From a virus (lineage: Duplodnaviria; Heunggongvirae; Uroviricota; Caudoviricetes), in the IMG/VR virus record IMGVR_UViG_2690316068_000002: a stretch of DNA of 64,000 bases; one strand, given 5' to 3'. This document shows, piece after piece, positions 6,520 to 62,967 of this stretch. Positions within the stretch are counted from its first letter, which is position 1, and each line of letters begins with the position of its first letter. Under the pieces are notes generated by a model. It was given only the letters and a program-made list of their open reading frames with translations, did not search any database and was not told the DNA's origin. The translations under genes were made by a program, and so were the position numbers.

Positions 6520-6557
6520 TCATTGCGCTAATAGTAAGTATATACTTACTAATTGAG

Positions 6558-7064
6558 TTAATTCAATAAATAGCCAGCAAATTCAACAGGAATGCCTGCT
6601 TCTATTAATGCCCCATCATTTTTGGGATAAATGATTGGCATCGCCATCGGTCGTACAAGTCGAAAATAAACACCACCAGATTCCGTTTCCTCTACTGGAA
6701 ACATCTCAATGATTTTATTGGCTTTCTCAACCGTCGTAGTAATTGACGAACCACGCACAATGATTGTGAATGATTCGAGATAAAAGCCCTGTAGCTCATG
6801 ATCGATGCTGATACCGGTATTTGGGTTAATAAGCAGGACGCCAGATTTCACATTGGCAGGCAAGTAGTGACAGAAAATGTCAGTCCCGACCGTGCCAATC
6901 TTTGCCTTCTGCATCAAACTTGCAAACGCTTCAATAAACACATTAACCTCTCGTAAATCCGGCTTTTCTGGCAGCCTCAAGAATCGCTTCTGAGAACTGC
7001 TTCTCGCTAATTTCCACCGCTCTTTCCAGAAAGTGTGGCCCAACACGAGGTTTAACACCGGCAA
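6558..7064 (-). CDS. Putative tail completion/terminator protein
   Basis: Position only (between head-tail genes and tail tube); ORF-track start may be too far upstream. Confidence 0.35.
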   Translation of the reverse strand: MPVLNLVLGHTFWKERWKLARSSSQKRFLRLPEKPDLREVNVFIEAFASLMQKAKIGTVGTDIFCHYLPANVKSGVLLINPNTGISIDHELQGFYLESFTIIVRGSSITTTVEKANKIIEMFPVEETESGGVYFRLVRPMAMPIIYPKNDGALIEAGIPVEFAGYLLN

Positions 7065-7416
7065 TTGGTGGGTTTGTCACGTTCTTCATTCGAGAAAGAT
7101 AACCGAGTCGGTATTTACCCAGCTCCATGTACTTAGCATAGTCACCGACTTCTACGCCAGGATGCCCCTGACGTGGTTTTGCTCCAGACACAGAAAGCTC
7201 AATGCGCAGCCCTGAATAACCTTCTTTAATCACCCTGGCAAAGATAGCTGTCTCCAGAGATCCGGTTTCCAGCGGGGCCATTGCACGGCTAAGGCGCTCA
7301 ACCAAACGCGCCAGCTTTTCCATGTCCCGAATAAGATATCGCTTAAATGCTTTCTGGCTGTTGTTGAGTCGATTCCCCGCACGTTTGAACTGATGCGCAT
7401 CGTATTTCAGACCCAT
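6943..7416 (-). CDS. Putative head-tail joining protein (HK97 gp10-like by position)
   Basis: 157 aa basic protein in head-tail connector region; assignment is positional. Confidence 0.35.
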   Translation of the reverse strand: MGLKYDAHQFKRAGNRLNNSQKAFKRYLIRDMEKLARLVERLSRAMAPLETGSLETAIFARVIKEGYSGLRIELSVSGAKPRQGHPGVEVGDYAKYMELGKYRLGYLSRMKNVTNPPIAGVKPRVGPHFLERAVEISEKQFSEAILEAARKAGFTRG

Positions 7417-7847
7417 ATATTCGCCCCTACTTCAAGATGCCCAGGTCTTCCTCGTAGCCCCCAGCGGCGATGAACACTGGACACCTTTAATTTTTGACCT
7501 TCAAGGATCAGTACATCATCAAGTTGTACAGCCGCTTCTAAAGGGACAACTAACACAGCATCAAACAGCTCCAGACTCGCCTTACCACGACTACCAGAGC
7601 TATCAGCACGAACTGACGATTTCTCATTACTCTGTTCGAACTTAACCACGCCGACATTCGTCTTCCTGACGAATTGTAATTGCGCCTCGCCGTAAACGTT
7701 CTTTGCGCCAAAGCGGTAGATCGCAATTTCTGTTTGCCACGAAATATTCATGCTCTCTCTCTGTTGTTGCCGGTCGCTCTCATTACTGGCCAAAAACCCT
7801 TTCGACCAAAAGTAAATAATGCGACTGGCGTTACGCACGGCGAACAA
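7407..7847 (-). CDS. Putative head-tail adaptor/head closure protein
   Basis: 146 aa, overlapping start/stop with neighbours, structural-module position. Confidence 0.35.
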   Translation of the reverse strand: MFAVRNASRIIYFWSKGFLASNESDRQQQRESMNISWQTEIAIYRFGAKNVYGEAQLQFVRKTNVGVVKFEQSNEKSSVRADSSGSRGKASLELFDAVLVVPLEAAVQLDDVLILEGQKLKVSSVHRRWGLRGRPGHLEVGANIWV

Positions 7848-8664
7848 TCATACGGTTGTTGATGTAACTGACCAGCAAGCGCCAGGTACTGCGAGCCACA
7901 TGCACGTTTGCAGCTTTACCGGTACGGTACATGTTGGTTGTTTCACCGATTGACTCTGACAAAATGCCATCCTCTCGTGCTGCGGCAACATCATTGCCAT
8001 TTGCGATCTCACACGCTTCGTTGACAACGGCAAGCATCAACGCTTCTTTGAAGTAGTCAGGGAACTCTTCAAACTTCTCTTGCGTCATCTTTTCCCAATC
8101 GACTAAATCATGCCGGTACGCTCCATCTGCTCCCCACGGAATGTCATACACATTCAGCATATTTTGAGGGCGATCGTATCGGTCAAAGTCGATACGTAGA
8201 ATTTTGCGGATTGAGAACGGTAAAGTTTTAATTCGTCTGGTAGCCTCAATGAGACGCTTGCGCATTAAGCCTTCACCATCCGACAGCAAAGTGTCCCCAT
8301 TCAGCATATCGATCGCCTGCATTTGAGCATCAGCGACAGTTGCAAACGACTGTTCTGGTATCGACAGTTCAAAACTATTCAGCAGAACATACATTTGCCG
8401 CTCTTCATGCGTCAGACCCGATGCAACAGCCTTCACAATGACGTACCGCAGATCGCGTTCTTTCTCAGAGAGCTGGTTATATTCAGCCGACACGACAACC
8501 GGAATCGACATTTGACCGCTGGTAATTTCTAGCGGCTCGCCATCAACGAGAATAGCCCCGGTGCTGTCCTTTACTGTGTAGGTGGCAGATTCGATATCCA
8601 GCACGTTGAAGGCAAATGAAAGAGAAACAGCTTCACCGCTACGATACGAGTCGATCTGCGCCAT
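7831..8664 (-). CDS. Hypothetical structural protein
   Basis: 277 aa ORF in structural module; no recognisable motif. Confidence 0.4.
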   Translation of the reverse strand: MAQIDSYRSGEAVSLSFAFNVLDIESATYTVKDSTGAILVDGEPLEITSGQMSIPVVVSAEYNQLSEKERDLRYVIVKAVASGLTHEERQMYVLLNSFELSIPEQSFATVADAQMQAIDMLNGDTLLSDGEGLMRKRLIEATRRIKTLPFSIRKILRIDFDRYDRPQNMLNVYDIPWGADGAYRHDLVDWEKMTQEKFEEFPDYFKEALMLAVVNEACEIANGNDVAAAREDGILSESIGETTNMYRTGKAANVHVARSTWRLLVSYINNRMIVRRA

Positions 8665-9098
8665 TACTCACCGCCTTGTGCTTTCAGGATGCCTTCAATC
8701 ATCTCGACAATTCCTTTCGCTTTGACACCAACCTGATTACCAATCACACGTAGACCGGCAATGCCTTCATTGTCTGCAATTGACTCCAACTCTTCTCGTG
8801 TGAAAGTCTGGATCTGTTTGGCCGGTTCATCTGGTGTCCCACGTTTCATTGGCACAATGTCAGGTGCTGCTGGCTCGGTAATCAGGTCTGCGGTCAACTC
8901 GCCACGATCACTGTATGCGGCAGACGGAGAAACATTTTTGCCCTCGACTGTTGATGCTCGCATTGAGGCACAAATCCTTTGCTGATCGATAAAAGGCAAC
9001 TCCGCTACGGACACCCCGTTCTCGAACTGAACGCCGCACAACATTCCCGAATAACCGGAAAATTGCGGTTCTAATAAAACAATTTTTGCTGGTTTCAT
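8664..9098 (-). CDS. Hypothetical structural protein
   Basis: 144 aa ORF abutting neighbouring genes, between decoration and head-tail genes. Confidence 0.4.
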   Translation of the reverse strand: MKPAKIVLLEPQFSGYSGMLCGVQFENGVSVAELPFIDQQRICASMRASTVEGKNVSPSAAYSDRGELTADLITEPAAPDIVPMKRGTPDEPAKQIQTFTREELESIADNEGIAGLRVIGNQVGVKAKGIVEMIEGILKAQGGE

Positions 9099-9142
9099 AA
9101 CGCATTCTCTCTACATGGGCGGCTTTCGCCGCCCAATATTGA

Positions 9143-10063
9143 TTATTCCTGTGCAGCAGTGACTTCTATGGTCGCTGTCGCTTTGTGGCTACCATCTTGG
9201 GTAGTAACCTCGATTGTGGCAGTACCAGCCGCAACGCCAGTTACAACACCGGTTTCGCTATCCACCGTTGCAAACTCGGTATTTTTGGATTCCCAAGTAA
9301 CGGTTTTATTTGTTGCTCCTGCCGGCTCGACATTTGCGGTCAGCTGAACAGTTTTGTTTGCCTCAACGGTTGTGCTATTTGGGTCGATTTCGACGCCGGT
9401 AACAGCCACAACAGGCGCAGTTACTTCCACCGTTGCAGTTCCCTTTTTGCTGCCATCTTGGGAAACGATCTCAATCGTCGCAGTGCCAACTTCTACACCA
9501 GTAACGTTCCCGCTCTGGTCTACCGTTGCCTTATCTTCATTTTTGGAAGACCAGGTAACAGCCTTATTCGTCGCATTTGACGGCTGAACATTCGCTTTCA
9601 GACTGACTGATTTCCCTTTCTCAACAGACGTTGATTCTGGCGTTACCGTTACGGATTGAACGGCTACCGGATTTACGGTGACTTCCACTGAAGCGGAAAG
9701 CTGGGTTTCCTGATCAGTTGCAGTAATTTTTACTTTGCCTGGTGCTACGCCAGTTACTAATCCAGTGCCGTTAACGGTTGCAATTTGGTCATTTGCTGAC
9801 TTCCAGGTGAATGAACTAGCACTCTTACCCATACTAATACCTGCACTAAGTTGAACAGTTTTCCCAACCAAAACTGACGGTGAAGCCGGGGTTATGTTTA
9901 CGGATTGGGAGAGGGGAACCGCCTGCAAACAAGCAGATAGCTGACTTTGTTGCCGCTCGGTTAAAGGTTCATCGGAGATAGAATTGGTAAATCCGGCACG
10001 GCACATATGCCCCGTAAAATCCGAAAATGCCTCTTCCGTAATCTTCATCTTTTGTTCTGGCAT
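9143..10063 (-). CDS. Ig-like (Big_2) repeat protein, probable capsid decoration protein
   Basis: Three tandem ~85-aa Ig-like repeats (KTVQLTANVEPAGATNKTVTWESKN...ATVD..GVVTGV..GTATIEV); immediately downstream of capsid gene. Confidence 0.6.
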   Translation of the reverse strand: MPEQKMKITEEAFSDFTGHMCRAGFTNSISDEPLTERQQSQLSACLQAVPLSQSVNITPASPSVLVGKTVQLSAGISMGKSASSFTWKSANDQIATVNGTGLVTGVAPGKVKITATDQETQLSASVEVTVNPVAVQSVTVTPESTSVEKGKSVSLKANVQPSNATNKAVTWSSKNEDKATVDQSGNVTGVEVGTATIEIVSQDGSKKGTATVEVTAPVVAVTGVEIDPNSTTVEANKTVQLTANVEPAGATNKTVTWESKNTEFATVDSETGVVTGVAAGTATIEVTTQDGSHKATATIEVTAAQE

Positions 10064-10136
10064 TTCTTGCTCCTACAAAAAGGGTGGGCGTATAGCCCAC
10101 CCTTAAACATAGATAATTACTTATCTACCACACTGA

Positions 10137-11012
10137 TTAAATTTTTACATTGGTCAGTGCAGCGATAGCCTTATCGTGCTTATTCGCCAGAGAGCAGTAC
10201 CACTTCACACGGGTACGTACTGCGTCTTTGTTCTGTACAGTACCAATGTTTTCAACAACGATACCTGCGTTATCGCCGCCATACAGACCAGTAACGCCGT
10301 TCTCTTCTGACAGATGCAAGCAGTAGATGCTTGCTTTGCCAGCATCGGTCGGGATGAAGTCGTTGATGATGAACGGAACGCCGTTATGACACAGCATCGG
10401 ACGACCGAAGTTCTCCATCATGATTTCAGACGGACCTACATTTACTGTACGCAGCAGCGCACGGTAAGCACGAAGGTGCTCTGAACGCATCATGATGCAG
10501 TCAGCACCAAGATCTTTCACCGCATCGACCAGTTCGTCGAACATAGAGAAAGTCATAGATGCACCGGCGATATCGATCTTCTGATCTGCGTGCATCAGGC
10601 GTGGAATACCGTCGAACGCTTTGTTGTTGGAGCTGGAGTCACCCAAAATCAGGTTGCGGCGGAACGCACGAGCCAGACCTTTAACTTTCTGACGAACCTG
10701 AATAGCCAACTGGTTATTGGTGTCGGCCATAGTGGTTGCCAGGAATTTATCAACGTCTACGTCACCAGCCAGAATACGCAGTTTCGCAACGCATTCTTCG
10801 AAGGTTGCTGCACCTTCAGGGATGGTGTCGTTAACGTCGATGAAGGTAGCTTCACTCAGCGTTTTTTCACGGTTGTACAGATATGCCTTTGAATTAATTT
10901 TCATAAAAGGCAGGATGGCAAACAGGTCATCGCGATCGATGATAGTTTCGATCACACCCTGTTCAAGTTCGTTGTTAGATAGCTTTTCAGCTTCTTCACG
11001 CAGTAATGGCAT
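10137..11012 (-). CDS. Major capsid protein (positional)
   Basis: 291 aa, strong codon usage, between scaffold-like and decoration genes; no motif-level proof of fold. Confidence 0.6.
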   Translation of the reverse strand: MPLLREEAEKLSNNELEQGVIETIIDRDDLFAILPFMKINSKAYLYNREKTLSEATFIDVNDTIPEGAATFEECVAKLRILAGDVDVDKFLATTMADTNNQLAIQVRQKVKGLARAFRRNLILGDSSSNNKAFDGIPRLMHADQKIDIAGASMTFSMFDELVDAVKDLGADCIMMRSEHLRAYRALLRTVNVGPSEIMMENFGRPMLCHNGVPFIINDFIPTDAGKASIYCLHLSEENGVTGLYGGDNAGIVVENIGTVQNKDAVRTRVKWYCSLANKHDKAIAALTNVKI

Positions 11013-11037
11013 CTATCAATTCCCTTTGATTTAGATG

Positions 11038-11925
11038 TTACTTAAGTCCAATTTTCCCCAGACCGGAGGCCAACTTATCCATAGTCGACTTGTTCTTCGG
11101 TTGGGATATTGTGTAGGTCGATTTGGAATGTGAGCCTACACCCTGCTTGGCTTCGCTACGCATCAATGCGTCAGCTTCCGGATCTGCCCGCACAATGCGT
11201 TCAATCGCGGATTCAAACGGCAACGGCTTACCTTCACCGTCAACCAGAACAGCTCGTTCTTTGTGACCTGCCGGTTTGTCATAACCCACTACGCTACCGT
11301 CTTCACCCACTTCAAAATGAGAACCGTAGATCACGCGGGCTTTTGCCGGGGTCATCAGAACTTTGTCACGTAGGAAGAGAGAGTTACTGAAGGAAGCGCC
11401 CACGGTCATCTCGACTAATTGAGATTTCAGTGATGCGTTTTCACTTTCCAGTGCTGCATAACGTTCGTCACGCTGTGCCAGCTCTGCCTGGTGTGCTTCG
11501 ATCATCTGTTTTTTAACAGCATCGAACTCACCACGACGCTCCAGTTCAGCTTGCTCCGCCTCACGACGTGCGTTTTCTGCGGCCTGTTCAGCTTCTAAAA
11601 GCTGGCGAGCACGAGCCGGATCGATATCACCGTACTGAGCAAGCTGATCGGCCAATGTGCGCTCTTTCTCTTTGCGCTTCATGTTCTCCTTCAGCAGTTC
11701 AGCACCAGCTTTCTTGGTTTTACGAAGTTCGGCCAGTAACTCTTCCTGAGTCATGCCAGCGTATTCGTCATCGCCCTTCGGCTGCTCTTTTTGTTCACCC
11801 TGTTTGTCAGGATCTTGTGTACTCTGCTCATTATCAGCAGCTACACCGCCAGCGCCTCCACGCTCATGCGCTTCAGCGACATCCATCAGACCACGACGGG
11901 CCAAAAGCATTTGCCACAGATTCAT
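11038..11925 (-). CDS. Scaffolding protein
   Basis: 295 aa, highly charged coiled-coil-type composition (EAEQAAENARREAEQAELERR...), between portal and capsid genes. Confidence 0.6.
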   Translation of the reverse strand: MNLWQMLLARRGLMDVAEAHERGGAGGVAADNEQSTQDPDKQGEQKEQPKGDDEYAGMTQEELLAELRKTKKAGAELLKENMKRKEKERTLADQLAQYGDIDPARARQLLEAEQAAENARREAEQAELERRGEFDAVKKQMIEAHQAELAQRDERYAALESENASLKSQLVEMTVGASFSNSLFLRDKVLMTPAKARVIYGSHFEVGEDGSVVGYDKPAGHKERAVLVDGEGKPLPFESAIERIVRADPEADALMRSEAKQGVGSHSKSTYTISQPKNKSTMDKLASGLGKIGLK

Positions 11926-11946
11926 AAAAATTCCTTTTGTTACTTA

Positions 11947-13521
11947 TCACTCGTTCTCTTGAGTAGATGAGTCCCCATTCCCTCGGGGTTGATCTTGCCC
12001 GCTTTCTTGGGCTGCACCACGATCATAAGTAAGTACTGACTTATTTTCAAGGGTATTTAGATCATTTTTTGGAGGAAAATTCAAGAGATCTTTATCAAAT
12101 TCCTTTTTCATCGCCTCAGTAATGTTCGGGAAAATCTTCTCAATAAGCATTTCCATCTGGTGACGACGTACAGAGTCCGGTGCCTGAAGTAATGACAGTT
12201 TCTCGGCAACAGAAAATTCATCAGTAAGGCCACGAATATCGAAACTTTCTGGATACGCAATTAAAGAGTGGTCTTCGTCCAGATCTACCCCCATCCATTT
12301 CGCAACCAGTAGCATGATTTGGCGTTCAGCCCTTTCCAGACGCTCTGCTTTTGTGACAAGCAAGCTATTTACACGCTGGAAGTCATACATTTTTGCGGCA
12401 CCAGATGAATTATCGATTCCCTGTGCGTTGTCCTGCTTCGTTCGCTCACCAGCTACACCAACTGAATGGTAGATTTCGTTAATCACCGTCTTAATCGTAG
12501 TGATGATCATCTGAGCTTGTTTCGGGTCTGGTGACAGATAAAACGGCTGGTTTCCACCTTCAGAATCGTAGGTGAAGACTCGCTTTGTGCCCATTTCAAG
12601 CACTTTAGTGTGGTTTTCATCACCAGGTAAAAGCGACTGTACCGGTATAGCCAACTGGCTAAATGTCTGATCCTGAATAATGGCATCAAGGTTTGACAGA
12701 TAGTTTGCAACCGCACGATCAAGATAAGCGATATCATCGATCAACGATGGGCTGAAATACGGTGATTCACTTTCTCCAATACAATCAACAGGAAACACAG
12801 GAACTACGCCGAGATTATGCGCGCCGCTGTCCTCTAAAATAACTTTTGCCTGACGACGACCTGCTCCACCAGCCCCCTTCTTCACTTCCTCACGGAACAG
12901 ATACCACTCGTTTTGTGTCCACAGACGATAACGTTGGTATTCCTGACCTGTAGAAGTAAAAGGATCTGCGTCATCGCGAGCGACTTCCACAATTAACGCC
13001 CATAACATATTCCCGTCGTCGTCCCATGCCACATCCAGCATTTGCTGAGGTGAAATCCAGTAGGCGTAGGCGCGAGCATCTTTCTTTTTCTCGTCAGCTA
13101 CTGACTCAACATCACCACTCATCGTGCTATCGACAACAACCCATATGCGACCGTAAATAGACGACTGCAAATCAATAGCGGCCATAAATGAGTCAATAGA
13201 GGCATTCTGGCGAGTCGCACGTTTCCAGAAATTGCGGATCTGCTCTGGTGCCTCTTCGATATTTCTATGAATGTCTTCTTTAAAGAGATATTTGTTGATG
13301 AGGTTTACCACCTCACGAGTGTGGTTGAAGCGATAAGCACGCTCAACTCGCTCCTTAAACTCCTGATCTCCCTCTTTAAAGTAACGAAAGATATTGTCTG
13401 TAAACCAACCACGCCCGCCAGCGTAAGTGCTGGCGAGGAAGTCCCAATGTTCTTTTTTCTTTTCGTATTCCGGGTGGCGTCGCGCCACCAGATCCTTAAT
13501 TTGTTTGTCGTTCAATTCCAT
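11947..13521 (-). CDS. Portal protein
   Basis: 524 aa, immediately downstream of large terminase and upstream of scaffold; acidic C-terminus. Confidence 0.7.
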   Translation of the reverse strand: MELNDKQIKDLVARRHPEYEKKKEHWDFLASTYAGGRGWFTDNIFRYFKEGDQEFKERVERAYRFNHTREVVNLINKYLFKEDIHRNIEEAPEQIRNFWKRATRQNASIDSFMAAIDLQSSIYGRIWVVVDSTMSGDVESVADEKKKDARAYAYWISPQQMLDVAWDDDGNMLWALIVEVARDDADPFTSTGQEYQRYRLWTQNEWYLFREEVKKGAGGAGRRQAKVILEDSGAHNLGVVPVFPVDCIGESESPYFSPSLIDDIAYLDRAVANYLSNLDAIIQDQTFSQLAIPVQSLLPGDENHTKVLEMGTKRVFTYDSEGGNQPFYLSPDPKQAQMIITTIKTVINEIYHSVGVAGERTKQDNAQGIDNSSGAAKMYDFQRVNSLLVTKAERLERAERQIMLLVAKWMGVDLDEDHSLIAYPESFDIRGLTDEFSVAEKLSLLQAPDSVRRHQMEMLIEKIFPNITEAMKKEFDKDLLNFPPKNDLNTLENKSVLTYDRGAAQESGQDQPRGNGDSSTQENE

Positions 13522-13547
13522 TTGAATAACCTTAGATAATTACTTAC

Positions 13548-14804
13548 CTATCTAGAACCACCAAGAATAACACGGTTTTTGACTGGATACCTACGATGTA
13601 CTGGATAGCCCAATGCGTCTGCACTATGCTCAATGCCACCTGTCTTATCCATATCTCGTGTTCCAGGCTTGTAGATGACTTTTTCCAATGAATCAATCAA
13701 ATGCTTGCACTTCGGATCGATATACAGCCGGATATCTCCAGATGCGGTCATCAGCATTCGGTTAACAGCATTAACACGATCCGCAATTGGCGGGTGCTTT
13801 TTCGAATAATCGACACGTAAGAATCCCTTCTCTTTGAATATGTCGACGTCAGACTCCCCGCGAGCATGTTGGCGATAAGCACCTGCCGGATCTGGAAATA
13901 CCGTTATCTGTGATTTCCAGCGCCAGAAGCGTCTCTCAAGCTCATCACAAACCTCTGCCGTGTTAGAGGAAAAGAGCACCAATTCATCAATTGCCCATAG
14001 CTCACCATTTGGCTGAGGTTGCAAAATTACTGAAGACATCGGGTCAATGTTGAAGTCCTGCCCTACCCATATAGGCAACCGAGGGTTGAACTGAAGCGGT
14101 TTTACATGCACGTTACGATCGAACGGGTAGTAAACGCGCCCGGACATGTTCTCAAAGCTCGCCAGGTACTCCTGAGCGAACGATTTCGGGTCCATATCGT
14201 TCTTAGCAGCTTCAATTTCCGCCGTAGGCACAAACGGAGAATCAGCAGTTACAAACTGCCAGCTCTTCCACTGTCCCTTTCTTTGCAGCTCTACGTTCTG
14301 GCCTATAGTCCACAGTTTGTGAAATTCCGAGAAGCCTTTTGGCGTACCAATGATCAGTGCACCGCCGCGTGTCGATGAAAGAGTAGGTCGTAACACCTTG
14401 TACCAAGTGTCAGCCTTCATATCCTGAAATTCATCAAGCACTACAAAATGCAACGCTACGCCGCGCAGAGTGTCAGGCTTATCAGCACCTTTGAGGGCGA
14501 TCTCCGAACCGTTCTTCAACACGATTGTCATCGTGGTGTCGTTCTTTTTCCTAACCCACTTACGAGGCAGAACTTCCTGTAGATCGTCCCACAAAATCTG
14601 GCGAGCCATCTGGTAAGTAGGAGCGACATACCAGACCCTTTGCTTTTTTTCCTTTGCCGCCGCACGAATAATAGTGGAGATCGACAACCGGGATTTTCCC
14701 CAGCGTCGACCAGCACAAACAACTTTAAATCGATGCGGAGACTGGAAGACTTTCATCTGTCCAGAATGCAGTTGCACAAGACTGAGCGAGGACGGGATTG
14801 CCAT
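13548..14804 (-). CDS. Terminase large subunit
   Basis: 418 aa; Walker A (CAGRRWGKS), Walker B (HFVVLDEFQD), C-terminal nuclease-type acidic motifs (WVGQDFNIDP). Confidence 0.85.
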   Translation of the reverse strand: MAIPSSLSLVQLHSGQMKVFQSPHRFKVVCAGRRWGKSRLSISTIIRAAAKEKKQRVWYVAPTYQMARQILWDDLQEVLPRKWVRKKNDTTMTIVLKNGSEIALKGADKPDTLRGVALHFVVLDEFQDMKADTWYKVLRPTLSSTRGGALIIGTPKGFSEFHKLWTIGQNVELQRKGQWKSWQFVTADSPFVPTAEIEAAKNDMDPKSFAQEYLASFENMSGRVYYPFDRNVHVKPLQFNPRLPIWVGQDFNIDPMSSVILQPQPNGELWAIDELVLFSSNTAEVCDELERRFWRWKSQITVFPDPAGAYRQHARGESDVDIFKEKGFLRVDYSKKHPPIADRVNAVNRMLMTASGDIRLYIDPKCKHLIDSLEKVIYKPGTRDMDKTGGIEHSADALGYPVHRRYPVKNRVILGGSR

Positions 14805-15436
14805 TATTCGTCCTCCCCTTCACTTCCATCATCTGTCGCGTCAAATTCGCTTAGAGCTTCTTCTTCCAACGTCTCAAGCAATTCGTCATCGATGATTTCA
14901 GGCTCGTCGTCTTCCTGACGTAATTTCGCCACCTGGGAAGGCGTAAGCTCACCAAATACCAGGTTCGGAATTTCTTCCTCGTCATTTTCCGCATGATCCA
15001 TGCCCAATGCTTTGGACGAAACTTCAAAGCATTTTGCAAGGGTATTACTGGCTCTCTGTAAGCTCTTGAGAGAATCCTCAATCGCCCCTAAAGGCTTACC
15101 CTCACGTTTGGCCGTAGTGACTTCGACCATCACCATCTGCCCCAACGCATACGCCCAGCCGTCATAACGTGTACGACGTTCTTCTATCTTTTCCGCACGG
15201 GCTTTAGCGCGAAGCTCTGCGTCAGATTTAAGAGACTCACGAACCATCTTCCCAACAGAGTCCGCGCCTTTCTCTAATCCTCGCTTTTTGAAATGTCTGG
15301 AGAGTGTTTCACGACGAATGCCGTACTCTTCCTCCAGCTTTGAGAGTGTATATTCGCCTGACGTCCATTTGGCTTCAGCTTCGGCCCACTCCGCTGGTGT
15401 CAGGCGAGTTTTTACCTCGTCTTTTTCGACCGTCAT
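14804..15436 (-). CDS. Terminase small subunit (putative)
   Basis: 210 aa immediately upstream of and abutting terL; N-terminal HTH-like region, acidic C-terminal tail. Confidence 0.5.
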   Translation of the reverse strand: MTVEKDEVKTRLTPAEWAEAEAKWTSGEYTLSKLEEEYGIRRETLSRHFKKRGLEKGADSVGKMVRESLKSDAELRAKARAEKIEERRTRYDGWAYALGQMVMVEVTTAKREGKPLGAIEDSLKSLQRASNTLAKCFEVSSKALGMDHAENDEEEIPNLVFGELTPSQVAKLRQEDDEPEIIDDELLETLEEEALSEFDATDDGSEGEDE

Positions 15437-15550
15437 AGATCCCTCTAAAACACACAGAGCGCGTCCATGCGCTCTAAAACAACTTGTTTACTGCATCTGC
15501 TAACCAACTTGTTTTCTGGGTTGTTTAATTAGGTCTGGCATGTCTTACGA

Positions 15551-15609
15551 AGCCTGCTTCCGTATATATTTAATAAGTTACTTATTATTTATATATACAG
15601 AAGCAGGTC
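15551..15609. repeat. 59-bp AT-rich palindromic element, copy 1
   Basis: agcctgcttccgtatatat...atatatacagaagcaggtct; 19-bp stem around an AT-rich centre; a second near-identical copy lies at 47941-47999. Confidence 0.8.
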
Positions 15610-18823: not shown

Positions 18824-18887
18824 TAAGTAATCACTTACTTATTATAATAGCCAAATAACATACAAAAGGCACTAAGGAAAGAGGTTT

Positions 18888-20449: not shown

Positions 20450-20728
20450 ATGAGCGAAAAGAAAACAACTTATTGCCAGGTGGCATTGTCCGATAAGGCC
20501 AATGACAAACTTGGAAAGTTTCAAATGAAACTAAAAGAAAAAAACATCAAAATGTCTAAGGCTGAAGTTATCAATACCATTCTGGAAGCGATGACAATGG
20601 CTGAATTTGACAAAGTTTCATCTGCCGTTGGAGTCTCTGCTAAGGCTCGTGAGAAAATCATGCGCATCTATGAGAACTCTAATATGACAAAGGAAGATTT
20701 AGAGCAAATTCTAAGCAAACTGCCATAA
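20450..20728 (+). CDS. Hypothetical protein
   Basis: 92 aa ORF starting 3 nt after helicase stop. Confidence 0.45.
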   Translation: MSEKKTTYCQVALSDKANDKLGKFQMKLKEKNIKMSKAEVINTILEAMTMAEFDKVSSAVGVSAKAREKIMRIYENSNMTKEDLEQILSKLP

Positions 20729-26190: not shown

Positions 26191-26652
26191 TTAAGCGAAT
26201 ACGCTTTCAGGGATTAAGGTGTCGGCAGGAATGCCAGAGGTAATGCGCAGACCGTACTGGCCAATCCAGGTGGTGCTGGTGTTCAGGCTGGAGGCGAATA
26301 CGGTGTTAACCATATTCATCATGGTTTCAAACACCTCTTCGTCAACCTGGCGGAAGTAGTTCTCGATTTTCAGCAGCAGCGGGTCAGTTGCATCGAGAAT
26401 GGACTGGTATTGAGTCGCGTACTCGCCGCCGGAGGCATCACCTTTACGCACGATCGTACTGGCCTGGACTTCGGCACCAGTTTCGGTGTTGTACGTAACA
26501 ACGGTGATTTTTGCCACATTCTTACCTTCGGCGGTTTCAGAGGCATAGTAAACATCAACTGTCAGTTTTTCGCGTTTAACGGTCATTTCACTCTCCGTAG
26601 TGTATTGGTTATTTTTATATTCTATGATCGTAAGTATGTACTTACAATACAA
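26191..26652 (-). CDS. Hypothetical protein
   Basis: 153 aa ORF-track call; likely start is the internal Met (MTVKREKL, ~26586) since the extension runs into a terminator hairpin. Confidence 0.45.
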   Translation of the reverse strand: MYCKYILTIIEYKNNQYTTESEMTVKREKLTVDVYYASETAEGKNVAKITVVTYNTETGAEVQASTIVRKGDASGGEYATQYQSILDATDPLLLKIENYFRQVDEEVFETMMNMVNTVFASSLNTSTTWIGQYGLRITSGIPADTLIPESVFA

Positions 26653-41391: not shown

Positions 41392-41452
41392 GTGTTTTTC
41401 TCTTATCGTTTAGTAACTACATTCTTACACAAATTAGGTAAGTATTTACCTA

Positions 41453-46283: not shown

Positions 46284-46428
46284 GTGGACTCCATCCAGTG
46301 TCAGAAAGAGTTGCGGCTGGCGATTGCCAGCCGCCTTTCTCGTTCCATCCTGGAACTGTGTCTTACCGACACATTGTCATCCTGACGCCGATAAGATACA
46401 TGATTTAAAATGATAGGTAAACACTTAC

Positions 46429-47022
46429 TTACTGCTTGTTGTAAACAAAACCAATATCTTTCTTGTGAGGCATATCTGCTGCGGAAAAAGCTGCGATCTT
46501 CGCGAGTCGATCACATATTTCATTTTCACGATGCCCGGCGTGACCTTTAACCCACTTCCAGCGAACATTATGTCGACTTGCAGCCTCATCCAGACGCTTC
46601 CACAGATCAACATTCTTTACCGGTTTTTTATCAGAAGTCATCCATCCATTACGTTTCCACCATTTCATCCACTGTGTCATGCCGTTTTTCAGATACTGGC
46701 TATCAGAGTACAAAATAACGTTGCATGGATATTTCAAACGCTCCAGCCCGATAAGTGCGCCCATCATCTCCATGCGGTTATTGGTGGTGCTATGAAAACC
46801 ATCTGAGAACTCGCGTTCCTCACCACGATACTGGAGAACGATACCGTAACCGCCCGGGCCACCCGGATTTTTAAGGCAAGAGCCATCACTAAAGATTTTC
46901 ACGGTTTTGAGCTGGGGATTGAACTCTACGACAGGCGTTGTGGGATTGGTGCGGGGAGATTTTTTGTTTTTGGCTTTTTTGCGAGTTTTTGCTTGCGATC
47001 GGGCTGGTGTCTTCGTCGTCAT
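46429..47022 (-). CDS. Ribonuclease H (RNase HI-like) with basic N-terminal extension
   Basis: Core IFSDGSC...GYG..L..R....S.TTNNRMEM...Y.DS.Y matches RNase HI active-site architecture; start placed at the Met preceded by GGAG. Confidence 0.75.
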
Positions 47023-47074: not shown

Positions 47075-47604
47075 CGCGTGCGTGTTAATAATTATTAAAA
47101 TAAACAAATTACTTCCCAGAACAGGTTTTTATAAACCTGAACTGAACGAACGAAGTGAGTGAAGTTCACCTCGAACGAAGTGAGAGGTTGTCTTTTCAGG
47201 TAATACTCTCCCAGGGAGGTGAGTATAAAATTCCTCACCAACCTGGTCGTTTCATAACCTGAAAAGCTATGGTCTAAGTCTACTGCCAGCTTAGACTTGG
47301 GAAGTTATGGATGACAGCACCCCAGAACCGAGATCTTCCCACACTTTATGAAGGGGAGTACTGGATTCAACCTCTCGAAACACCCCAGACTCGACAATCA
47401 TAAAGTGACCCTTGTCTCTGCTCACTTTGGTTCCCCCTTCCCCGACACCTAAACGGCACCGGTTCTACGCTGGTAGTGAGCTTTTTTAAACCTGACGCCA
47501 GTGACGCTTACCCCCACCCATCAGGTCGAGTCTCCAGTCTACGACTGGAAACTATCAGATCTTAGCACTTACAATTCACTTTATAAATAGTTTGTACTTA
47601 TCTA
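47075..47604. other. 530-bp intergenic region without ORFs
   Basis: Direct repeats (cgaacgaagtgag x2), hairpins (ggtgag...ctcacc), C-rich tracts; no ORF of 60 aa or more on either strand. Confidence 0.5.
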
Positions 47605-48623: not shown

Positions 48624-48652
48624 CGATAGGTAAGTGATTACCTATTTTTGCA
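48624..48652. promoter_or_regulatory. Palindromic intergenic motif family 2, representative copy
   Basis: tcgATAGGTAAGTgatTACCTATtttt; about 14 related copies in intergenic positions across the window. Confidence 0.5.
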
Positions 48653-53448: not shown

Positions 53449-53618
53449 AAAAACCTCACAAAGATAAGTAATTACTTATTCATCGTGTGAGTTTACATTC
53501 ATTGAGAGAACAAGACCAGACAGATAAAAAAATGGTGGCCATAGGCCACCAAAACGAATAGTCATTCCAGAGTTTTATTACGCATGTTAAATATACACAG
53601 ATAGATAACTACCTACAA

Positions 53619-54488: not shown

Positions 54489-54565
54489 GCTAGTTTTGTT
54501 CCTTCTTAATTCTTGTGATCCATTGTGGCCCAGCGTTGCCAGGCCACATAATGCTTTGTATCGGT

Positions 54566-55708: not shown

Positions 55709-55808
55709 GTGTTTTTCCTTTTTTGATGTGTTTAAACAAGTTGTTATCTTATGTGTTTAAACAAGGCTTACAAATCAAAGATAAGGTGGGGATATACCCC
55801 ACCATATG

Positions 55809-58124: not shown

Positions 58125-58197
58125 GTATCACCAAATAAAGAGGGCCACTAAATATAGTGGCCCATGTTAATAGATAAGCACTTACCTATCAATGAAA

Positions 58198-58767
58198 TCA
58201 AATGAGAGACTTAAGAACATCGCGCACCTGGCGGAACTGATCTGTTTGCATACCGGTATGGATGGCAGCCACCGCATCAGCCAAATGTTCGTTTTTGTTC
58301 ACGAGAACATCCTGTCCAGATTGCTTACGACGCAGCCACGGTGCTTTAGGGTGTTTTTTCGTAGCCCACTGGATAATCTCTTCTTTCGATGTAGTAAGTT
58401 TATTGCCGACAAAATGCTTGATTTCGTTTGGAGTAACCTGGATCAATGGCTTATCCACACACGCAAGTACACCGATACAAATACCGTAAGACGTCTGCGA
58501 ACGAGAGTTTTGGCTCCCAACCGGTAGCTCACAAAAAACCATATTTGCCTTATCAATGATTGGCTTCGCAACACGCCATATTTCACTGGCGCGGCGCAGA
58601 TCGTCACTGTTCACACGAACGGTCTTTTTGTTACTCCCCGCTTTAGTCTCAACAAGAGTAAGGCCGTGAATCTCAAGTTCGTCCGTCTCAAGGTCTAAAG
58701 TGCCCACAGCAAGCCCAAAGTTGCTCATTGAGGGATCAACACCAACTACGCTGATTTTTTTACTCAT
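58198..58767 (-). CDS. RuvC-like Holliday junction resolvase (putative)
   Basis: 189 aa; N-terminal VVGVDPSMSNFGLAV resembles the RuvC/YqgF first catalytic-Asp strand. Confidence 0.55.
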   Translation of the reverse strand: MSKKISVVGVDPSMSNFGLAVGTLDLETDELEIHGLTLVETKAGSNKKTVRVNSDDLRRASEIWRVAKPIIDKANMVFCELPVGSQNSRSQTSYGICIGVLACVDKPLIQVTPNEIKHFVGNKLTTSKEEIIQWATKKHPKAPWLRRKQSGQDVLVNKNEHLADAVAAIHTGMQTDQFRQVRDVLKSLI

Positions 58768-58776
58768 ATAGTCTCC

Positions 58777-59520
58777 TTACCATGTTCCCCATATAGGGTT
58801 TTCCAATAATCTCGCCTCCAACGAATTGGCTACTATTGCCGTTTGCAACGTTGGTTGGGGATAGTTTGCAAAGTCTGAATACTCATTTTCCTGCGTGACA
58901 CGTTTATCTGCGGCATGTTTAACACCACTTGCTATGAAATGACGCATGATGCCCAATAGCCTCCGACTGTCTGCACTATCGTTTGCTAAAACATGAGGGA
59001 GCTGAAGTTCGATTTCTACCATTTCTCCATACTTACCAACAAACTGTAGTTTGTCCGCACTGTACTTTTTATCCCTCCTTTGGATAAGGAAACCAGTAAA
59101 AGCATCACCTGGCGATGCCAAACTATCCACCCGCTTATTGGCAAGTCGAATAAGGTTCGTGAAAGCCATACAGTGATGCGCACCCATTCCCCCAAAGAAC
59201 CCTTCGCTATTAATGTTAAGATCTTCAGTTTCATGGGATGCAATAAACCCAGGCCCGACGTTGGGAAGATATCCCCCCTCAACAAAAGGATTAATCAGGA
59301 TCGGCGCAATACATCCAGGTGGTAGTGATTTCAAACTTTGCATCAATGGCGTCTCGGATATTAGACCAAGCAACGCGGCGAATTGTACTCCGTCAATATT
59401 GTTGCTGCCCCACAGAATACGTGGAGCCGCACCATTGGAAGTATGCCCATTGATCAGTTTTATCGACTGCATCACTGCAAATACCTGCAAAAACTGCGAG
59501 CGGCTTAATTTAAACGACAT
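58777..59520 (-). CDS. Hypothetical protein
   Basis: 247 aa ORF between resolvase-like and SbcC-like genes. Confidence 0.45.
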   Translation of the reverse strand: MSFKLSRSQFLQVFAVMQSIKLINGHTSNGAAPRILWGSNNIDGVQFAALLGLISETPLMQSLKSLPPGCIAPILINPFVEGGYLPNVGPGFIASHETEDLNINSEGFFGGMGAHHCMAFTNLIRLANKRVDSLASPGDAFTGFLIQRRDKKYSADKLQFVGKYGEMVEIELQLPHVLANDSADSRRLLGIMRHFIASGVKHAADKRVTQENEYSDFANYPQPTLQTAIVANSLEARLLENPIWGTW

Positions 59521-61426
59521 AGCTGCGCCCCTCTTTAACTTCCAGCGTAATAGTTTCCCGGAACCATGACTTCATCTCTTTATGGGAGATAATCAGCACA
59601 GTACCTCGCTCGCGAGCTTTGGACTCCAGAATACCCATGAGACGTTCAAGACCGGCTGTATCGAGTGCATCGTCAATTTCGTCGCCGATAAACAAATCGA
59701 TGTTTTTACTCGCCCGGTTACTAACCAGATCCTGCAATGCCAAAGAACACGCAATGCGAACCTTCCGCTTCTCACCACCAGAGAGGGTTTGGAACGACTT
59801 ACTTGAACCTTTCTTCTGCACACTAATGTTGAATTTGTCGCGATACTCACCTTTTTTAGTGACATCCATCGTCGACCACTCAGCAGTAATATTCCCGTCA
59901 GACAACGTATTGAGATACTCGGCAGTGCGTGTATTCAGGAAAGGCGTAACAGACGTCAAAATATGAGAACGCACCCCGGCAGGAGAGTAGACCTGACGAG
60001 CTTTTTCCAATAGCAACGTTTGTTCCTGAATAGCCTTTAACTCATCTTTTAAGGACTTGAAGGTAGACTTACTGGATACCAAGTTATCTTCGTGTCTGGC
60101 GATAAGAGCAATAAACGGATTAATCTCTTTTGATATACGATCGACCTCAGTACGAGCACGAGTCACAAGAGACTCAATAGCAACAACCTCCTTCTCACGA
60201 TGACGCAAAGATGAGAGTTGTTTCGTAAGCTCTTCAATCCGGGCAATGATAGCCGTTACATCAGGTGTCGTTTTAACAAGGGCAGACTCAATGCTTAACG
60301 CTTTCTCAAGATTCGTTTTGTGTTTAGCCATTGCCTCTGCAAGTGTCTTCGCCTGACCAATTTCCTGACGTGCTTGTTCAATGAAATTCTCCTTCACCGT
60401 TGATAGATCTTCTTCGCAGTAGGCTTTGCCACAAGTAGGGCATGGTGATCCCACTTTAGTACCAACCTCTTCTGCTTTGGTCTTAAAATTACGCGCGCGG
60501 TTCATTGCATCAGCCTGACTATTTTCTGTAGCTTTGATGCTTGCCCGAATATCAGTTATCGCACCACGAACTTTGAGCAACTTGGCGTCATGTTCTTCTT
60601 TTGAGGCTAACTTTTTGCGCTCACTTTCGATTGCCTTCTCGGTATCACGTATCTGTTCGGGAAGAGTGCGGATCTCAAGTTCAACTTCCGTTAACTCAAC
60701 TTCGGCACTGGCCAGCCCAGCCAGGGCATCGTCATAACGTTTAGAACGCTCTTGCTCCCATGATTCAGAGGAGGCTTTCGCTGACTCAATTTCTGACTGT
60801 GTTGCCTCAATGGTCGAGATTGTCGACTCCAATTTGGTTTTAACCACATCCATACGTGCGGCAGCTGCATTAGCTCGCTCACGAGCAATAGCGTAGGCGC
60901 GTGTCAGTCTGTCAACGCCAGCGGCTTCTTCTACGATGGTTTTGAGGTTTTTGTCGGACATTCCAGGTAAATCTGGCATAGCTTCTTGGCTCGCATAGAT
61001 GGAAGCCATGAAAACCTCTTTAGATGCACCGATCAGACGCTCGACGAACTCCTGCGTCAGCGCATCTTTGCCTTTCGTCATATCGCCATCTTCACCACGA
61101 ACGATAAGACGATTTTTGAACTCTTTGTGTTTACGGTGACGAATGATTGCGTATCTCTTGCCTTCATCCTCGATGGTTACTGCAACACGACAGTTCTTTT
61201 CATGGTCGGTAGACAACACATCGTCACCCTTCACACCATGAGCTGTTTCGCCATAAAGACACCACATCAGGCTATTCATTAGAGTTGACTTTCCAGAGCC
61301 ATTACTTGATGCGGAACTATCATCACTATTAACACCCTGAATGAGCACTAAACCACGCTGATCTAACTCGACCTCCGCGCTGGCGATAGCCATAAAATTC
61401 TCAACCTGGAGTTTTAAAAACTTCAT
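59510..61426 (-). CDS. SbcC/Rad50-like recombination ATPase
   Basis: 638 aa; N-terminal Walker A (NGSGKST), long coiled-coil with central CxxC hook (CPTCGKAYC), C-terminal signature LSGGEKRK and Walker B DLFIGDEID. Confidence 0.8.
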   Translation of the reverse strand: MKFLKLQVENFMAIASAEVELDQRGLVLIQGVNSDDSSASSNGSGKSTLMNSLMWCLYGETAHGVKGDDVLSTDHEKNCRVAVTIEDEGKRYAIIRHRKHKEFKNRLIVRGEDGDMTKGKDALTQEFVERLIGASKEVFMASIYASQEAMPDLPGMSDKNLKTIVEEAAGVDRLTRAYAIARERANAAAARMDVVKTKLESTISTIEATQSEIESAKASSESWEQERSKRYDDALAGLASAEVELTEVELEIRTLPEQIRDTEKAIESERKKLASKEEHDAKLLKVRGAITDIRASIKATENSQADAMNRARNFKTKAEEVGTKVGSPCPTCGKAYCEEDLSTVKENFIEQARQEIGQAKTLAEAMAKHKTNLEKALSIESALVKTTPDVTAIIARIEELTKQLSSLRHREKEVVAIESLVTRARTEVDRISKEINPFIALIARHEDNLVSSKSTFKSLKDELKAIQEQTLLLEKARQVYSPAGVRSHILTSVTPFLNTRTAEYLNTLSDGNITAEWSTMDVTKKGEYRDKFNISVQKKGSSKSFQTLSGGEKRKVRIACSLALQDLVSNRASKNIDLFIGDEIDDALDTAGLERLMGILESKARERGTVLIISHKEMKSWFRETITLEVKEGRSYVV

Positions 61427-61701
61427 ATAACACCTCTGATACCGTGTGTTAGTTTTTGGCCTTCTTTCAATCTGAACTCCGTATGCGCCGGGAAGGATCT
61501 GCGCCTCAATACGCCTTTTCTGGTTAACCTTCCAAGATAAAACGCTACGGGATTTCCTTGTGGCGGGTAGGGCTTGTGAAACATCACCGTCTGGCCTCGT
61601 TCAAGTCTTTTCATCGTGATGGCAAAGTCTCGAAAGCTCCCATAACGACTTTGCCTCACACAGCCTCCGAACTCTCCGCTTCGGTGAGGATTTCCTGACA
61701 C
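61423..61701 (-). CDS. Small ORF in SbcD-SbcC spacer (doubtful)
   Basis: 92 aa ORF filling the ~230-bp gap between the two genes; basic, Arg-rich. Confidence 0.2.
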   Translation of the reverse strand: MSGNPHRSGEFGGCVRQSRYGSFRDFAITMKRLERGQTVMFHKPYPPQGNPVAFYLGRLTRKGVLRRRSFPAHTEFRLKEGQKLTHGIRGVI

Positions 61702-62741
61702 AAAATATCCAACTTGCTCAGATCAAATCCGCCGTCAGTATCGTGGACAATCTTGCAATAAGCAGATACCGACTCTCCCAGGCTATCGATTTTGCTGGTT
61801 TCCGTTGTGCTTGCTGTCCCTTCCATCATTGATGACTTACGGATGAAGTTGCACACAACACCTTTTGCACCCATTGTTTTGAGGATGTTCTGGTACTTAA
61901 TGCCTTCTTCGTCGTTCTCGATTACGGCGCGGAAACGCACGTAGTTGCCGCGAATTTGGTCATCAGCAACATAATCTTCCAGGTTAATGAATTTAGGCGC
62001 ACTAGTTTCGTAGTGACTAAAACTGCCGTCCGGGTTTACGATCATGTAACCAGCCAGAGAGCCAACATCCCCCCAATTTTGATGGGTCAGTGCACCGACA
62101 CTGATAACTCCAGGAATGACCTCTTTGTGGTTGTGGTAATGCCCACTAAGCACGAGACGAAAGCCGATATCCTTTAACTCCTGCGCATCAATACCGACGT
62201 CAGGCATTGTTGGAATGGCTTTGTTGATGGATGTATGGATAACAACGTCATGGTTATCACCTTCTACGCTCTTACGTAACGTTTTCAGATCGCTGATAAG
62301 CTCCGCATGATTGTTACGCCAGCTAATCAGGTGGACAGTGACATCACCAATTTTTATTGAGTGTGGGCGTTTTCCACATACGATTACCACGCCGATAGAA
62401 CTCAGCGATGCTGCTGCGTTGGCGCTATATACTGAATCGTTGGTTTCAAGATCGTGATTACCGGCCAGCATTACTACTGTCAGATCAAGCTCGTTGATAA
62501 TCCACTTGTACGTTTCAGTTACGTAATGCAGAACAGAAGGGGACACAGTTCCTCGGACGTGAAATGTATCACCGGCAACCAACATGTACTTACAACCAGC
62601 CTTCTTCATGGCGATGGCGGCTTCTTTCGTTGCTTCCAACTGTATTTCAAGTCTGGAGTTAAGCCCCTCAGCGTTCGTCGTGGAGAACGCATCCCATTTG
62701 TGGTAGTGGCAGTCAGAAATGACGCCGTATGGCAAAGTCAT
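61656..62741 (-). CDS. SbcD/Mre11-like nuclease
   Basis: Calcineurin-type phosphoesterase motifs (GVISDCHYH, VAGDTFH, GNHD, GHYH); start placed at MTLPYGV rather than the longer ORF-track extension to 62837. Confidence 0.8.
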   Translation of the reverse strand: MTLPYGVISDCHYHKWDAFSTTNAEGLNSRLEIQLEATKEAAIAMKKAGCKYMLVAGDTFHVRGTVSPSVLHYVTETYKWIINELDLTVVMLAGNHDLETNDSVYSANAAASLSSIGVVIVCGKRPHSIKIGDVTVHLISWRNNHAELISDLKTLRKSVEGDNHDVVIHTSINKAIPTMPDVGIDAQELKDIGFRLVLSGHYHNHKEVIPGVISVGALTHQNWGDVGSLAGYMIVNPDGSFSHYETSAPKFINLEDYVADDQIRGNYVRFRAVIENDEEGIKYQNILKTMGAKGVVCNFIRKSSMMEGTASTTETSKIDSLGESVSAYCKIVHDTDGGFDLSKLDILCQEILTEAESSEAV

Positions 62742-62967
62742 GTGTTTTTCCTTTGTGGTTATTTTGATACAGATATTAAGTGTGTTTGAGAGGCGAACAA
62801 TCCAGATAACACGGCCATTAAGAATGTTCACAGACACATGATTATGGCAAATTCATAGGTAAGTGAATACCTATTTTTATGGGCAGCAAAGATTTCTAGA
62901 TGTTACAAGCCACTCTATAATCGCAGTCACTTAATGATGACAACCAAACGAAAAAGGAGAACTGACG

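Follow-up and report, generated by a model that had tools for sequence, protein, structure and literature searches.

Genomic Context

The 64,000-nt stretch of viral DNA analyzed here (IMG/VR record IMGVR_UViG_2690316068_000002, referred to in its full length as the window) carries an A+T-rich palindrome that recurs between genes of its structural and DNA-metabolism modules. The window shares 98% identity over 40-48 kb with Escherichia phage CMS-2020a and Cyrano and ~85% with Salmonella phage SSU5, and is therefore part of an SSU5-like phage-plasmid of ~108 kb. According to the Cyrano and SSU5 annotations, it contains a structural and packaging module, an operon headed by a UvsW-like helicase gene, an accessory region, and a block of DNA-metabolism genes (Table 1). 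About 1,000 plasmids in PLSDB contain this terminase, and SSU5-like elements are very common in clinical Klebsiella, E. coli, Enterobacter, and Salmonella, and in Yersinia pestis. No account of the motif was found in the openly searchable literature, a search whose range did not extend to the subscription-journal genome papers on SSU5, pHCM2, and D6.

Sequence, Copies, and Distribution of the Palindrome

The element is an 18-bp palindrome with directly abutting halves, TAGGTAAGT and ACTTACCTA (joined 18-mer, TAGGTAAGTACTTACCTA), and flanking GA and TC dinucleotides extend it to 22 bp (GA-TAGGTAAGT-ACTTACCTA-TC; 22-mer, GATAGGTAAGTACTTACCTATC). The original prediction, made from the sequence of the window, had separated the halves by three bases, but this form, TAGGTAAGT-N3-ACTTACCTA, has no match in the window even at three mismatches. 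The joined TAGGTAAGTACTTACCTA at ≤3 mismatches matches eight times vs. 0.02 expected, and the degenerate pattern TARRTAA-N4-TTAYYTA at ≤2 mismatches matches 21 times vs. 2.0 expected. A position-weight scan identified 11 strong sites (score 23.6-30.1), with weak sites at ≤17 and noise at ≤10, a separation that is partly circular as the matrix was trained on the same 11 sites. In total, the window holds these 11 strong copies and ~5 degenerate ones. Among 60 unique copies from SSU5-like elements, T1, A2, and T5 are invariant or nearly so, and positions 3, 4, and 7 alternate between purines.

Nine of the 14 positions originally listed correspond to strong copies (10108, 13530, 18819, 41433, 46408, 48624, 53457, 58167, and 62853) and four to degenerate or variant ones (6529 and 26623, which have two extra central bases, 47584, and 53596), but there is no copy at 11936. 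The list was also incomplete, missing the strong copies at 30 and at 12026, the latter within the 3′ end of the portal open reading frame.

The placement between genes that had been claimed is well supported: 10 of the 11 strong sites are intergenic, although non-coding DNA makes up only 12.5% of the window (binomial P = 9e-9). Strong sites occupy 9/30 gaps of the lytic modules and 0/22 gaps of the accessory region (18.9-41.3 kb), and are thus confined to the structural and DNA-metabolism modules; the variant at 26629 is the sole family-like copy of the accessory region. A position just upstream of the next ribosome-binding site, also part of the original description, holds for some copies (13533, 48627, 53461, and 18824 lie 11-18 nt ahead of the next start codon) but is not general, as the distance to the start codon spans 11 to ~130 nt and several copies adjoin the upstream stop codon instead, with those at 13533, 46414, and 41435 opening with or abutting it.

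Table 1. Palindrome copies, neighboring signals, and selected genes and modules (window coordinates).
Feature	Position	Strand	Remarks
Structural and packaging module	1-18.8 kb	-	Cyrano and SSU5 annotation
Strong copy, sense TAAGTAAGTACTAATTTA	30..47		Between two tail genes; ortholog SSU5 15590
Sigma-70-like TGGATA-17-TATCAT	51-23	- (sense)	Around copy 30, palindrome in spacer
Variant copy AGTAAGTATATACTTACT	6533..6552		Two additional central bases; score 17; ortholog SSU5 9068
Sigma-70-like match	6566-6537	sense	At variant copy 6533, palindrome containing the -10
Intrinsic terminator AAGGGTGGGC-TATAC-GCCCACCCTTTTT	10078..10107 (scan 10102-10086)	-	Begins ~5 nt past copy 10110
Strong copy	10110..10127		9 nt past major capsid stop codon, then terminator on sense strand
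Strong copy	12026..12043		Within portal reading frame 3′ end, ~100 nt ahead of next gene; kept in SSU5 (3545) and IMG/VR relatives
Sigma-70-like TTGAAA-17-TATGAT	12050-12022	sense	Over copy 12026, palindrome in spacer; best in first 20 kb
Strong copy	13533..13550		Fills large terminase-portal junction; first 3 bases are terminase stop; ends 11 nt before portal ATG
Related palindrome ATAAGT-A-ACTTAT	15565..15590		Other spacing, family membership uncertain; upstream of small-terminase-like gene
Strong copy	18824..18841		Divergent region between ParB-like gene (-) and UvsW-like helicase gene (+); on + strand one base, then TATAAT
Operon with UvsW-like helicase gene first	18.9-24 kb	+	Cyrano and SSU5 annotation
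Candidate trans-factor, 92-aa protein	20450..20728	+	3 nt past helicase gene; strand, helix, turn, helix pattern recalling ribbon-helix-helix repressors
FljA-family protein, 187 aa	21938-22501	+	Pfam PF03614 (repressor of phase-1 flagellin), E = 7.5e-85; weak Hfq-like C-terminal match
Accessory region	to ~41 kb		Cyrano and SSU5 annotation
Variant copy, GTAAGTACATACTTAC core	26629..26646		Low score; 5 nt past sense-strand terminator
Methionyl-tRNA synthetase-like protein	30904-33066	-	Accessory region
MinD/ParA-like ATPase	33095-34195	+	Accessory region; Cyrano ortholog expressed in lysogen
LexA-like S24 peptidase fragment	34233-34622	-	Accessory region; without DNA-binding domain
DNA-metabolism block	41-64 kb	-	Cyrano and SSU5 annotation
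Strong copy	41435..41452		Abuts DUF4942 gene stop, head of tight 41.4-35.4 kb gene block; ortholog SSU5 84179
Strong copy	46414..46431		Overlaps RNase H stop codon; bidirectional terminator 80 nt downstream at 46313-46334
Degenerate copy	47587..47604		Upstream of small CYRAN_81-orthologous gene
Strong copy	48627..48644		13 nt upstream of adenine methyltransferase ATG
Sigma-70-like TTGCCA-17-AAAAAT	48672-48644	sense	Ends at first base of copy 48627; palindrome just past the -10
Strong copy	53461..53478		12 nt upstream of thyX GTG start; ~55 nt past terminator 53551-53533
Degenerate copy	53598..53615		Score 4.8; upstream of terminator 53551-53533
Strong copy	58171..58188		9 nt past RuvC-like gene stop; terminator 58163-58142 within 8 nt, then nrdA
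Sigma-70-like TTGATA-17-TAACAT	58192-58164	sense	Copy 58171 in spacer
Strong copy	62856..62873		Upstream of SbcD-like gene; ortholog SSU5 63081

Conservation and Replacement in Related Elements

Cyrano contains ~23 sites genome-wide, and SSU5 a similar number at corresponding junctions, the second half of SSU5 having been scanned by pattern search only. The motif is present at the same places in all 46 IMG/VR loci recovered via the neighboring FljA-like gene, and also in two more divergent contigs of ~110 kb (L177 and L178). At the terminase-portal junction, the aligned sequences keep the 18-mer, which opens with the terminase stop codon, and the spacer to the portal ATG varies in both sequence and length (11-19 nt). 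The two findings named in advance as speaking against the motif, equal frequency in coding DNA or lack of conservation in related phages, were both looked for and neither was observed. Among 120 IMG/VR stretches with an exact match, two or more sites are found only in SSU5-like members, and the matches are mostly single chance ones; an exact-pattern scan of a genome collection gave, among the matches listed, one Kluyvera contig and many unrelated single matches. As a separate observation, exact TARGTAAGTACTTACYTA is unexpectedly frequent, once per contig among the matches listed (L182-L261), in assemblies of Acidobacteriota (Terriglobia, Pyrinomonadaceae), Opitutia, and Dadabacteria, where the cause may be some gene or RNA that these groups conserve and that has no relation to the phage motif.

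In more distant syntenic relatives, found through the terminase, the same junctions hold other palindromes. Acinetobacter baumannii pABTJ2 (terminase 59% identical) has its own palindrome, ATTAGTAAGCGCTTACTAAT, in the divergent region between helicase and ParB genes and at the terminase-portal junction. The palindrome also flanks the capsid gene on both sides, with a terminator following the copy past the gene, and recurs at several junctions of tail genes. Rhizobium phage RHph_N1_10 (terminase 57%) has GTCAATCAATATTGATTGAC-like palindromes in 10/17 intergenic regions, with a terminator directly after three of them. The order of capsid gene, palindrome, and terminator seen in the window is also found in SSU5 (5472), pABTJ2, and RHph_N1_10. 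Likewise, the palindrome facing the helicase gene is followed, after 0-2 nt, by a strong -10 hexamer in five lineages, among them L177 (TATAAT), L178 (TAGAAT), Acinetobacter (TATAAT), and Rhizobium (TATCAT). By contrast, no shared intergenic motif was found in the 28 kb examined of Pseudomonas phage hairong (terminase 56%, same gene order), which has an ordinary -35/-10 pair at its terminase-portal junction.

Judged from these comparisons, the element is old, with its position conserved and its sequence co-varying with lineage, as would be expected for a cis site that evolves with its own binding protein.

RHph_N1_10 also has many iteron-like direct repeats, TTCGCTAAAT and ATTTCGCTAA (555-1078, 1763-1799, 2798-2850, 3771-3985, and 9983-10075), near a ParA-like gene and a small ribbon-helix-helix-like gene, which suggests that this phage is also maintained as a plasmid.

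DNA Site, RNA Element, or Terminator

The pairing of the two arms in the 60 unique sites distinguishes a DNA site from an RNA structure. A structured RNA should show compensatory pairing and G·U pairs on the transcribed strand only, but the arms contain 342 Watson-Crick pairs, 27 G·U, 22 A·C, and 29 others, and arm pairs 4/15 and 7/12 show no association. At a single junction, some natural variants have two A·C mismatches when read on the sense strand. The predicted RNA hairpins are weak (-2 to -8 kcal/mol), the hairpin of the sense RNA of copy 46414 does not form (-1.9 kcal/mol, z = 0.14), and no Rfam family matches anywhere in the window. Since the halves vary independently, G·U is about as common as A·C, and the hairpins are weak, the palindrome is best explained as a duplex-DNA site for a symmetric protein rather than as an RNA element or a terminator.

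The earlier view that the copies are not terminators agrees with these A+T-rich, weakly folding stems, and the terminator scan reports none of the palindromes. The remark that they lack a T-run is likewise correct for the palindrome itself; yet canonical terminators lie within 8 nt after the copies at 10110 and 58171.

Relation to Promoters

Only 5 of ~13 sites are overlapped by a sigma-70-like match on the sense strand, and the registers differ: the palindrome lies in the spacer in three cases, just past the -10 in one, and contains the -10 in another (Table 1). The hexamers therefore lack the constant, oriented position relative to the palindrome that is expected of a sigma-70 promoter. Such matches are overall rarer than in shuffled sequence (13 vs. 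21.2 in positions 1-20000; 17 vs. 29.2 in 40000-59999), suggesting that spurious host promoters are selected against in the lytic modules. A TAnnnT hexamer starts 7 nt from the palindrome center in about half of the sites. It occurs on the sense and antisense sides with similar frequency, however (7/12 vs. 5/12 in the window, 5/10 vs. 6/10 in SSU5, and 4/11 vs. 7/11 in Acinetobacter), and so looks like part of an extended palindrome and gives no direction.

The original prediction had proposed a late promoter or operator for a dimeric regulator. A site for such a regulator is consistent with the independent half-sites, weak hairpins, intergenic restriction, and conservation or replacement at the same junctions. 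The late-promoter label is not supported: besides structural genes, early-type ones (nrdA, thyX, dam, helicase) also have copies ahead of them, TAnnnT is equal on both sides, the promoter-like registers vary, and the terminase-portal junction has no room for a leader that bears a ribosome-binding site.

Proposed Dispersed Operators and Competing Explanations

The palindrome is almost certainly bound by a phage regulator that turns the lytic gene blocks on or off. In the reading that we favor, and to which we give roughly even credence, the copies are operators of a single symmetric regulator (dimeric or tetrameric) that the phage encodes and that most likely represses in the plasmid state. These operators would be spread over ~23 intergenic junctions in the lytic modules of SSU5-like phage-plasmids, and in the plasmid state the regulator would occupy them. 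Some occupied sites would cover weak sigma-70 promoters, either at the -35 and spacer or around the start; at sites between co-transcribed genes, the bound protein would block read-through. All lytic transcription units could then be silenced together from many points. Protein binding, the phage origin of the protein, and its repressive effect are all three things that we infer.

Repression is favored over activation because the promoter-like registers vary, no leader is possible at some junctions, and early-type as well as late-type genes are covered. The copy-free accessory region and the presence of the motif in plasmid-borne lineages, with its absence in hairong, also speak for repression. 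Finally, the Cyrano lysogen expresses few lytic-strand genes, but these include CYRAN_81, at 12-fold above background, and CYRAN_117 (PMC9928086), and by site score both sit just downstream of the weakest Cyrano palindromes. None of these arguments is decisive.

Several observations weigh against repressing operators. The link to lysogeny is drawn from few lineages, and the absence in hairong refers to 28 kb of its genome. At arm pair 3/16, the bases are mildly and positively associated (odds ratio 4.3, P = 0.016, with non-independent sites). A terminator starts 5-7 nt past the palindrome in five instances from three clades, for which a plain operator model has no explanation. Homology searches detected no counterpart of P1 C1, P22 Arc/Mnt, or P1 Lpa. 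Lastly, it is by inference that repression is preferred to activation.

Activation deserves weight as a serious rival. It is possible, though rather unlikely, that the copies are activator-dependent phage promoters, in which an activator would bind the palindrome in place of a -35 element, a weak -10 would lie ~7-10 nt from the center, and each site would start a lytic unit. The P1 late promoters have a comparable layout, with a 9-bp inverted repeat AAGTGACTT, 4 nt, and a -10 hexamer, and their AAGT/ACTT half-sites are shared with the center of the present motif. The TAnnnT hexamers, the perfect TATAAT beside the helicase palindrome in several clades, and the ordinary promoter at the same terminase-portal junction of palindrome-free hairong would also suit activation. 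In addition, at copies directly followed by a terminator, a start ~7 nt past the hexamer would fall in the left arm of the terminator stem, a geometry found in three clades, and transcripts begun there would escape termination. What argues against activation is that the hexamers are equally common antisense and the registers differ, that both early-type and late-type genes are preceded by sites, and that an Lpa homologue was not found. Moreover, only 11-13 nt separate the palindrome from the start codon at the terminase-portal, dam, and thyX junctions, and a transcript begun there would therefore lack a ribosome-binding site. Repression by dispersed operators thus remains our preferred reading, but activation keeps real weight.

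A more elaborate version of the operator reading, which we consider unlikely, is a genome-wide switch in which a small phage protein, or the ParB-like proteins acting as CTPase-type proteins, would control RNA polymerase from ~23 junctions at terminators 5-7 nt downstream. Over the Enterobacterales, Acinetobacter, and Rhizobium lineages, the protein would have evolved together with its site while the junctions stayed in place.

It is quite unlikely that the sites are bound or loaded by the two ParB-like proteins, as dispersed centromeres or for KorB-like silencing with a spreading clamp. Genes for proteins with a ParB N-terminal domain (18125-18805 and 17457-18125) adjoin a site in all clades, the first protein has a GEHRWRA motif resembling the ParB nucleotide-binding box, and palindromes of such length are typical of parS and OB sites. 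However, hairong keeps both genes and the synteny without a shared palindrome in the 28 kb, both proteins have ParB_N matches only, with no helix-turn-helix domain detected, and the sites avoid the plasmid-maintenance and accessory region, with a separate ParA gene elsewhere in the genome.

RNA hairpins in polycistronic mRNA, serving as the target of a translational repressor (such as the FljA-like protein) or as an inter-cistron processing or stability signal, are very unlikely. Many copies lie in transcribed gaps between co-oriented genes, with 11-18 nt left to the start codon, all enterobacterial SSU5-like elements keep an FljA-family protein, and FljA is reported to block translation of fliC mRNA (PMC2652032). 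Against this stand the mismatched variants and weak folding described above, the equal frequency of G·U and A·C on the sense strand with compensatory change largely absent, the Acinetobacter palindromes without a detectable FljA-like gene, and the position of copy 18824 in a divergent promoter region.

Selfish or structural repeats, such as repetitive extragenic palindromic (REP) elements or miniature inverted-repeat transposable elements (MITEs), or chance A+T-rich palindromes without a regulatory role, are extremely improbable: the copies share the general look of REP elements as short intergenic palindromes, but they far exceed chance, and rather than sitting at non-orthologous, mobile positions spread in host chromosomes, they hold fixed orthologous junctions with clade-specific replacement, in loci that are multi-copy only in this phage lineage among the matches listed.

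Comparison with Known Systems

In logic, the sites are closest by analogy to P1 C1 operators and mycobacteriophage stoperators; in site architecture, they are closest to the P22 Arc/Mnt operators.

P1 is likewise a plasmid-prophage with one recognition sequence before many lytic operons, overlapping promoters at varying positions, and its annotation lists >15 C1 operators in the genome half examined. The P1 operators, however, are asymmetric and 17 bp long, whereas the present sites are 18-22-bp palindromes, many of them inside operons right after stop codons. A C1-family repressor was not found here either, as tblastn with C1 gave nothing at E ≤ 1 in the window, the rest of Cyrano, and the first half of SSU5.

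The distribution of the sites is matched most closely by the stoperators of mycobacteriophage L5 and cluster A. In mycobacteriophages, according to a published account (PMC9283540), numerous repressor sites are dispersed, many in short intra-operon gaps, and bound repressor stops elongation. Stoperators differ in being asymmetric, orientation-dependent 13-bp sites of a monomeric repressor in an unrelated host and phage lineage, and the roadblock is only proposed here. The present sites, being symmetric, have no definable orientation, and the analogy is restricted to distribution.

Like the present sites, the operators of P22 Arc and Mnt are palindromes of 17-21 bp with TAG-containing outer boxes, such as O_mnt (ATAGGTCCACGGTGGACCTGT in the P22 record). 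O_arc (ATGATAGAAGCACTCTACTAT) occupies the -35/-10 spacer of the ant promoter, and copies 30, 12026, and 58171 are placed likewise in promoter-like sequence. With two independent 9-bp half-sites, the palindrome has the form of a ribbon-helix-helix operator (~17-21 bp palindrome, two subsites). In P22, though, there is one operator of each kind at one locus, compared with ~23 copies here, and an Arc/Mnt homologue was not found.

The P1 Lpa late promoters share an AAGT/ACTT inverted repeat near the -10 hexamer and serve many operons of a plasmid-prophage. The Lpa box, however, is a 9-bp sequence (AAGTNACTT) with one central base at a fixed -22 and controls late genes only; the present motif has 18 bp, no central base, hexamers on both sides, and early-type genes among its neighbors. 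A tblastn search with P1 Lpa reached no better than E = 5.4 in the window and E = 0.13 in Cyrano, and the operon proteins gave no match to an Lpa-like PHROG.

In plasmid RK2, the ParB-family protein KorB has 12 palindromic OB operators at and away from promoters. The dispersed palindrome and the ParB-family gene beside one site are shared features, but the ParB-like proteins here lack a detected DNA-binding domain, and the lytic relative hairong has the proteins without the sites in the 28 kb examined.

Because the sites depart from the known families in the defining features tested, we assign the motif to the dispersed operator regulons of temperate phages.

Candidate Regulators

The best positional candidate for the regulator is the 92-aa protein encoded next to the helicase gene, a weak candidate that we put forward tentatively. 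Its gene always follows the helicase gene in the relatives compared and is expressed in the Cyrano lysogen (PMC9928086). As the helicase operon opens with the palindrome, one base, and TATAAT, the protein would be autoregulated. Its sequence pattern and AlphaFold2 topology are compatible with a ribbon-helix-helix fold, although all statistical fold tests, as well as the homology tests against its Acinetobacter counterpart, were non-significant.

Other candidates were rejected. The FljA-like protein is 65-94% identical across all enterobacterial SSU5-like phage-plasmids (835 PLSDB plasmids) but only ~35% identical to a plasmid-borne flagellin repressor. It was dismissed as a general factor because its gene is not detectable in the Acinetobacter relatives, which have palindromes, and because the sites are not RNA-like. 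The "putative repressor" of Cyrano, CYRAN_45, adjoins an integrase gene and has no counterpart at the corresponding position of the SSU5 annotation. The repressor of a Roseobacter phage-plasmid (PMC10090143) belongs to an unrelated 42-kb element. The SSU5_054/055 region was rejected as an immunity region, as HicB/HicA genes hold the corresponding position in Cyrano and the SSU5 palindromes there differ. These palindromes, GTGTTAAC-TTGA-GTCAACAC and GTGTTGAGGGGTTAACAC (SSU5 1475-1600), are probably a toxin-antitoxin operator, as the HicB/HicA genes at the Cyrano position indicate.

Two further features of the window were noted. Just upstream of the terminase genes, an 88-aa protein (15632-15898, - strand) has weak matches to archaeal-type winged-helix regulators (Sta1 and Lrs14, E ~0.003), and a small gene is also found at this position in the Acinetobacter, Rhizobium, and Pseudomonas relatives. 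The 88-aa protein may act as a late regulator. Nearby lies an imperfect inverted repeat of ~52 bp (15545-15600, - strand) with ATAAGT-A-ACTTAT at its center, a sequence that fits the pattern AAGTNACTT of the P1 Lpa box. Two AAACAAGTTG-type repeats and a hairpin come after the inverted repeat, which may serve specifically to control the late operon or may have a role in packaging.

A second palindrome family, AAACAAnTTGTTT, has nine copies in the window at ≤1 mismatch vs. 0.23 expected (15477, 25369, 26133, 27036, 30756, 30807, 40243, 44784, and 45513) and is also present in L178. Most copies are found ahead of small genes of the accessory region, which lacks the TAGGTAAGT family. This motif may be the "family 1" of the original prediction and the site of a second regulator.

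Implications for SSU5-like Phage-Plasmids

SSU5-like phage-plasmids can carry resistance genes. One recognition sequence at ~23 conserved junctions gives direct experimental access to the regulator that would keep ~100 kb of lytic genes silent in the plasmid state, and the clade-specific palindromes at identical junctions would constitute a natural series of matched protein-site pairs. If the switch at the downstream terminators were true, it would amount to protein-controlled termination and restart modules insulating every lytic unit of a 108-kb plasmid-prophage.

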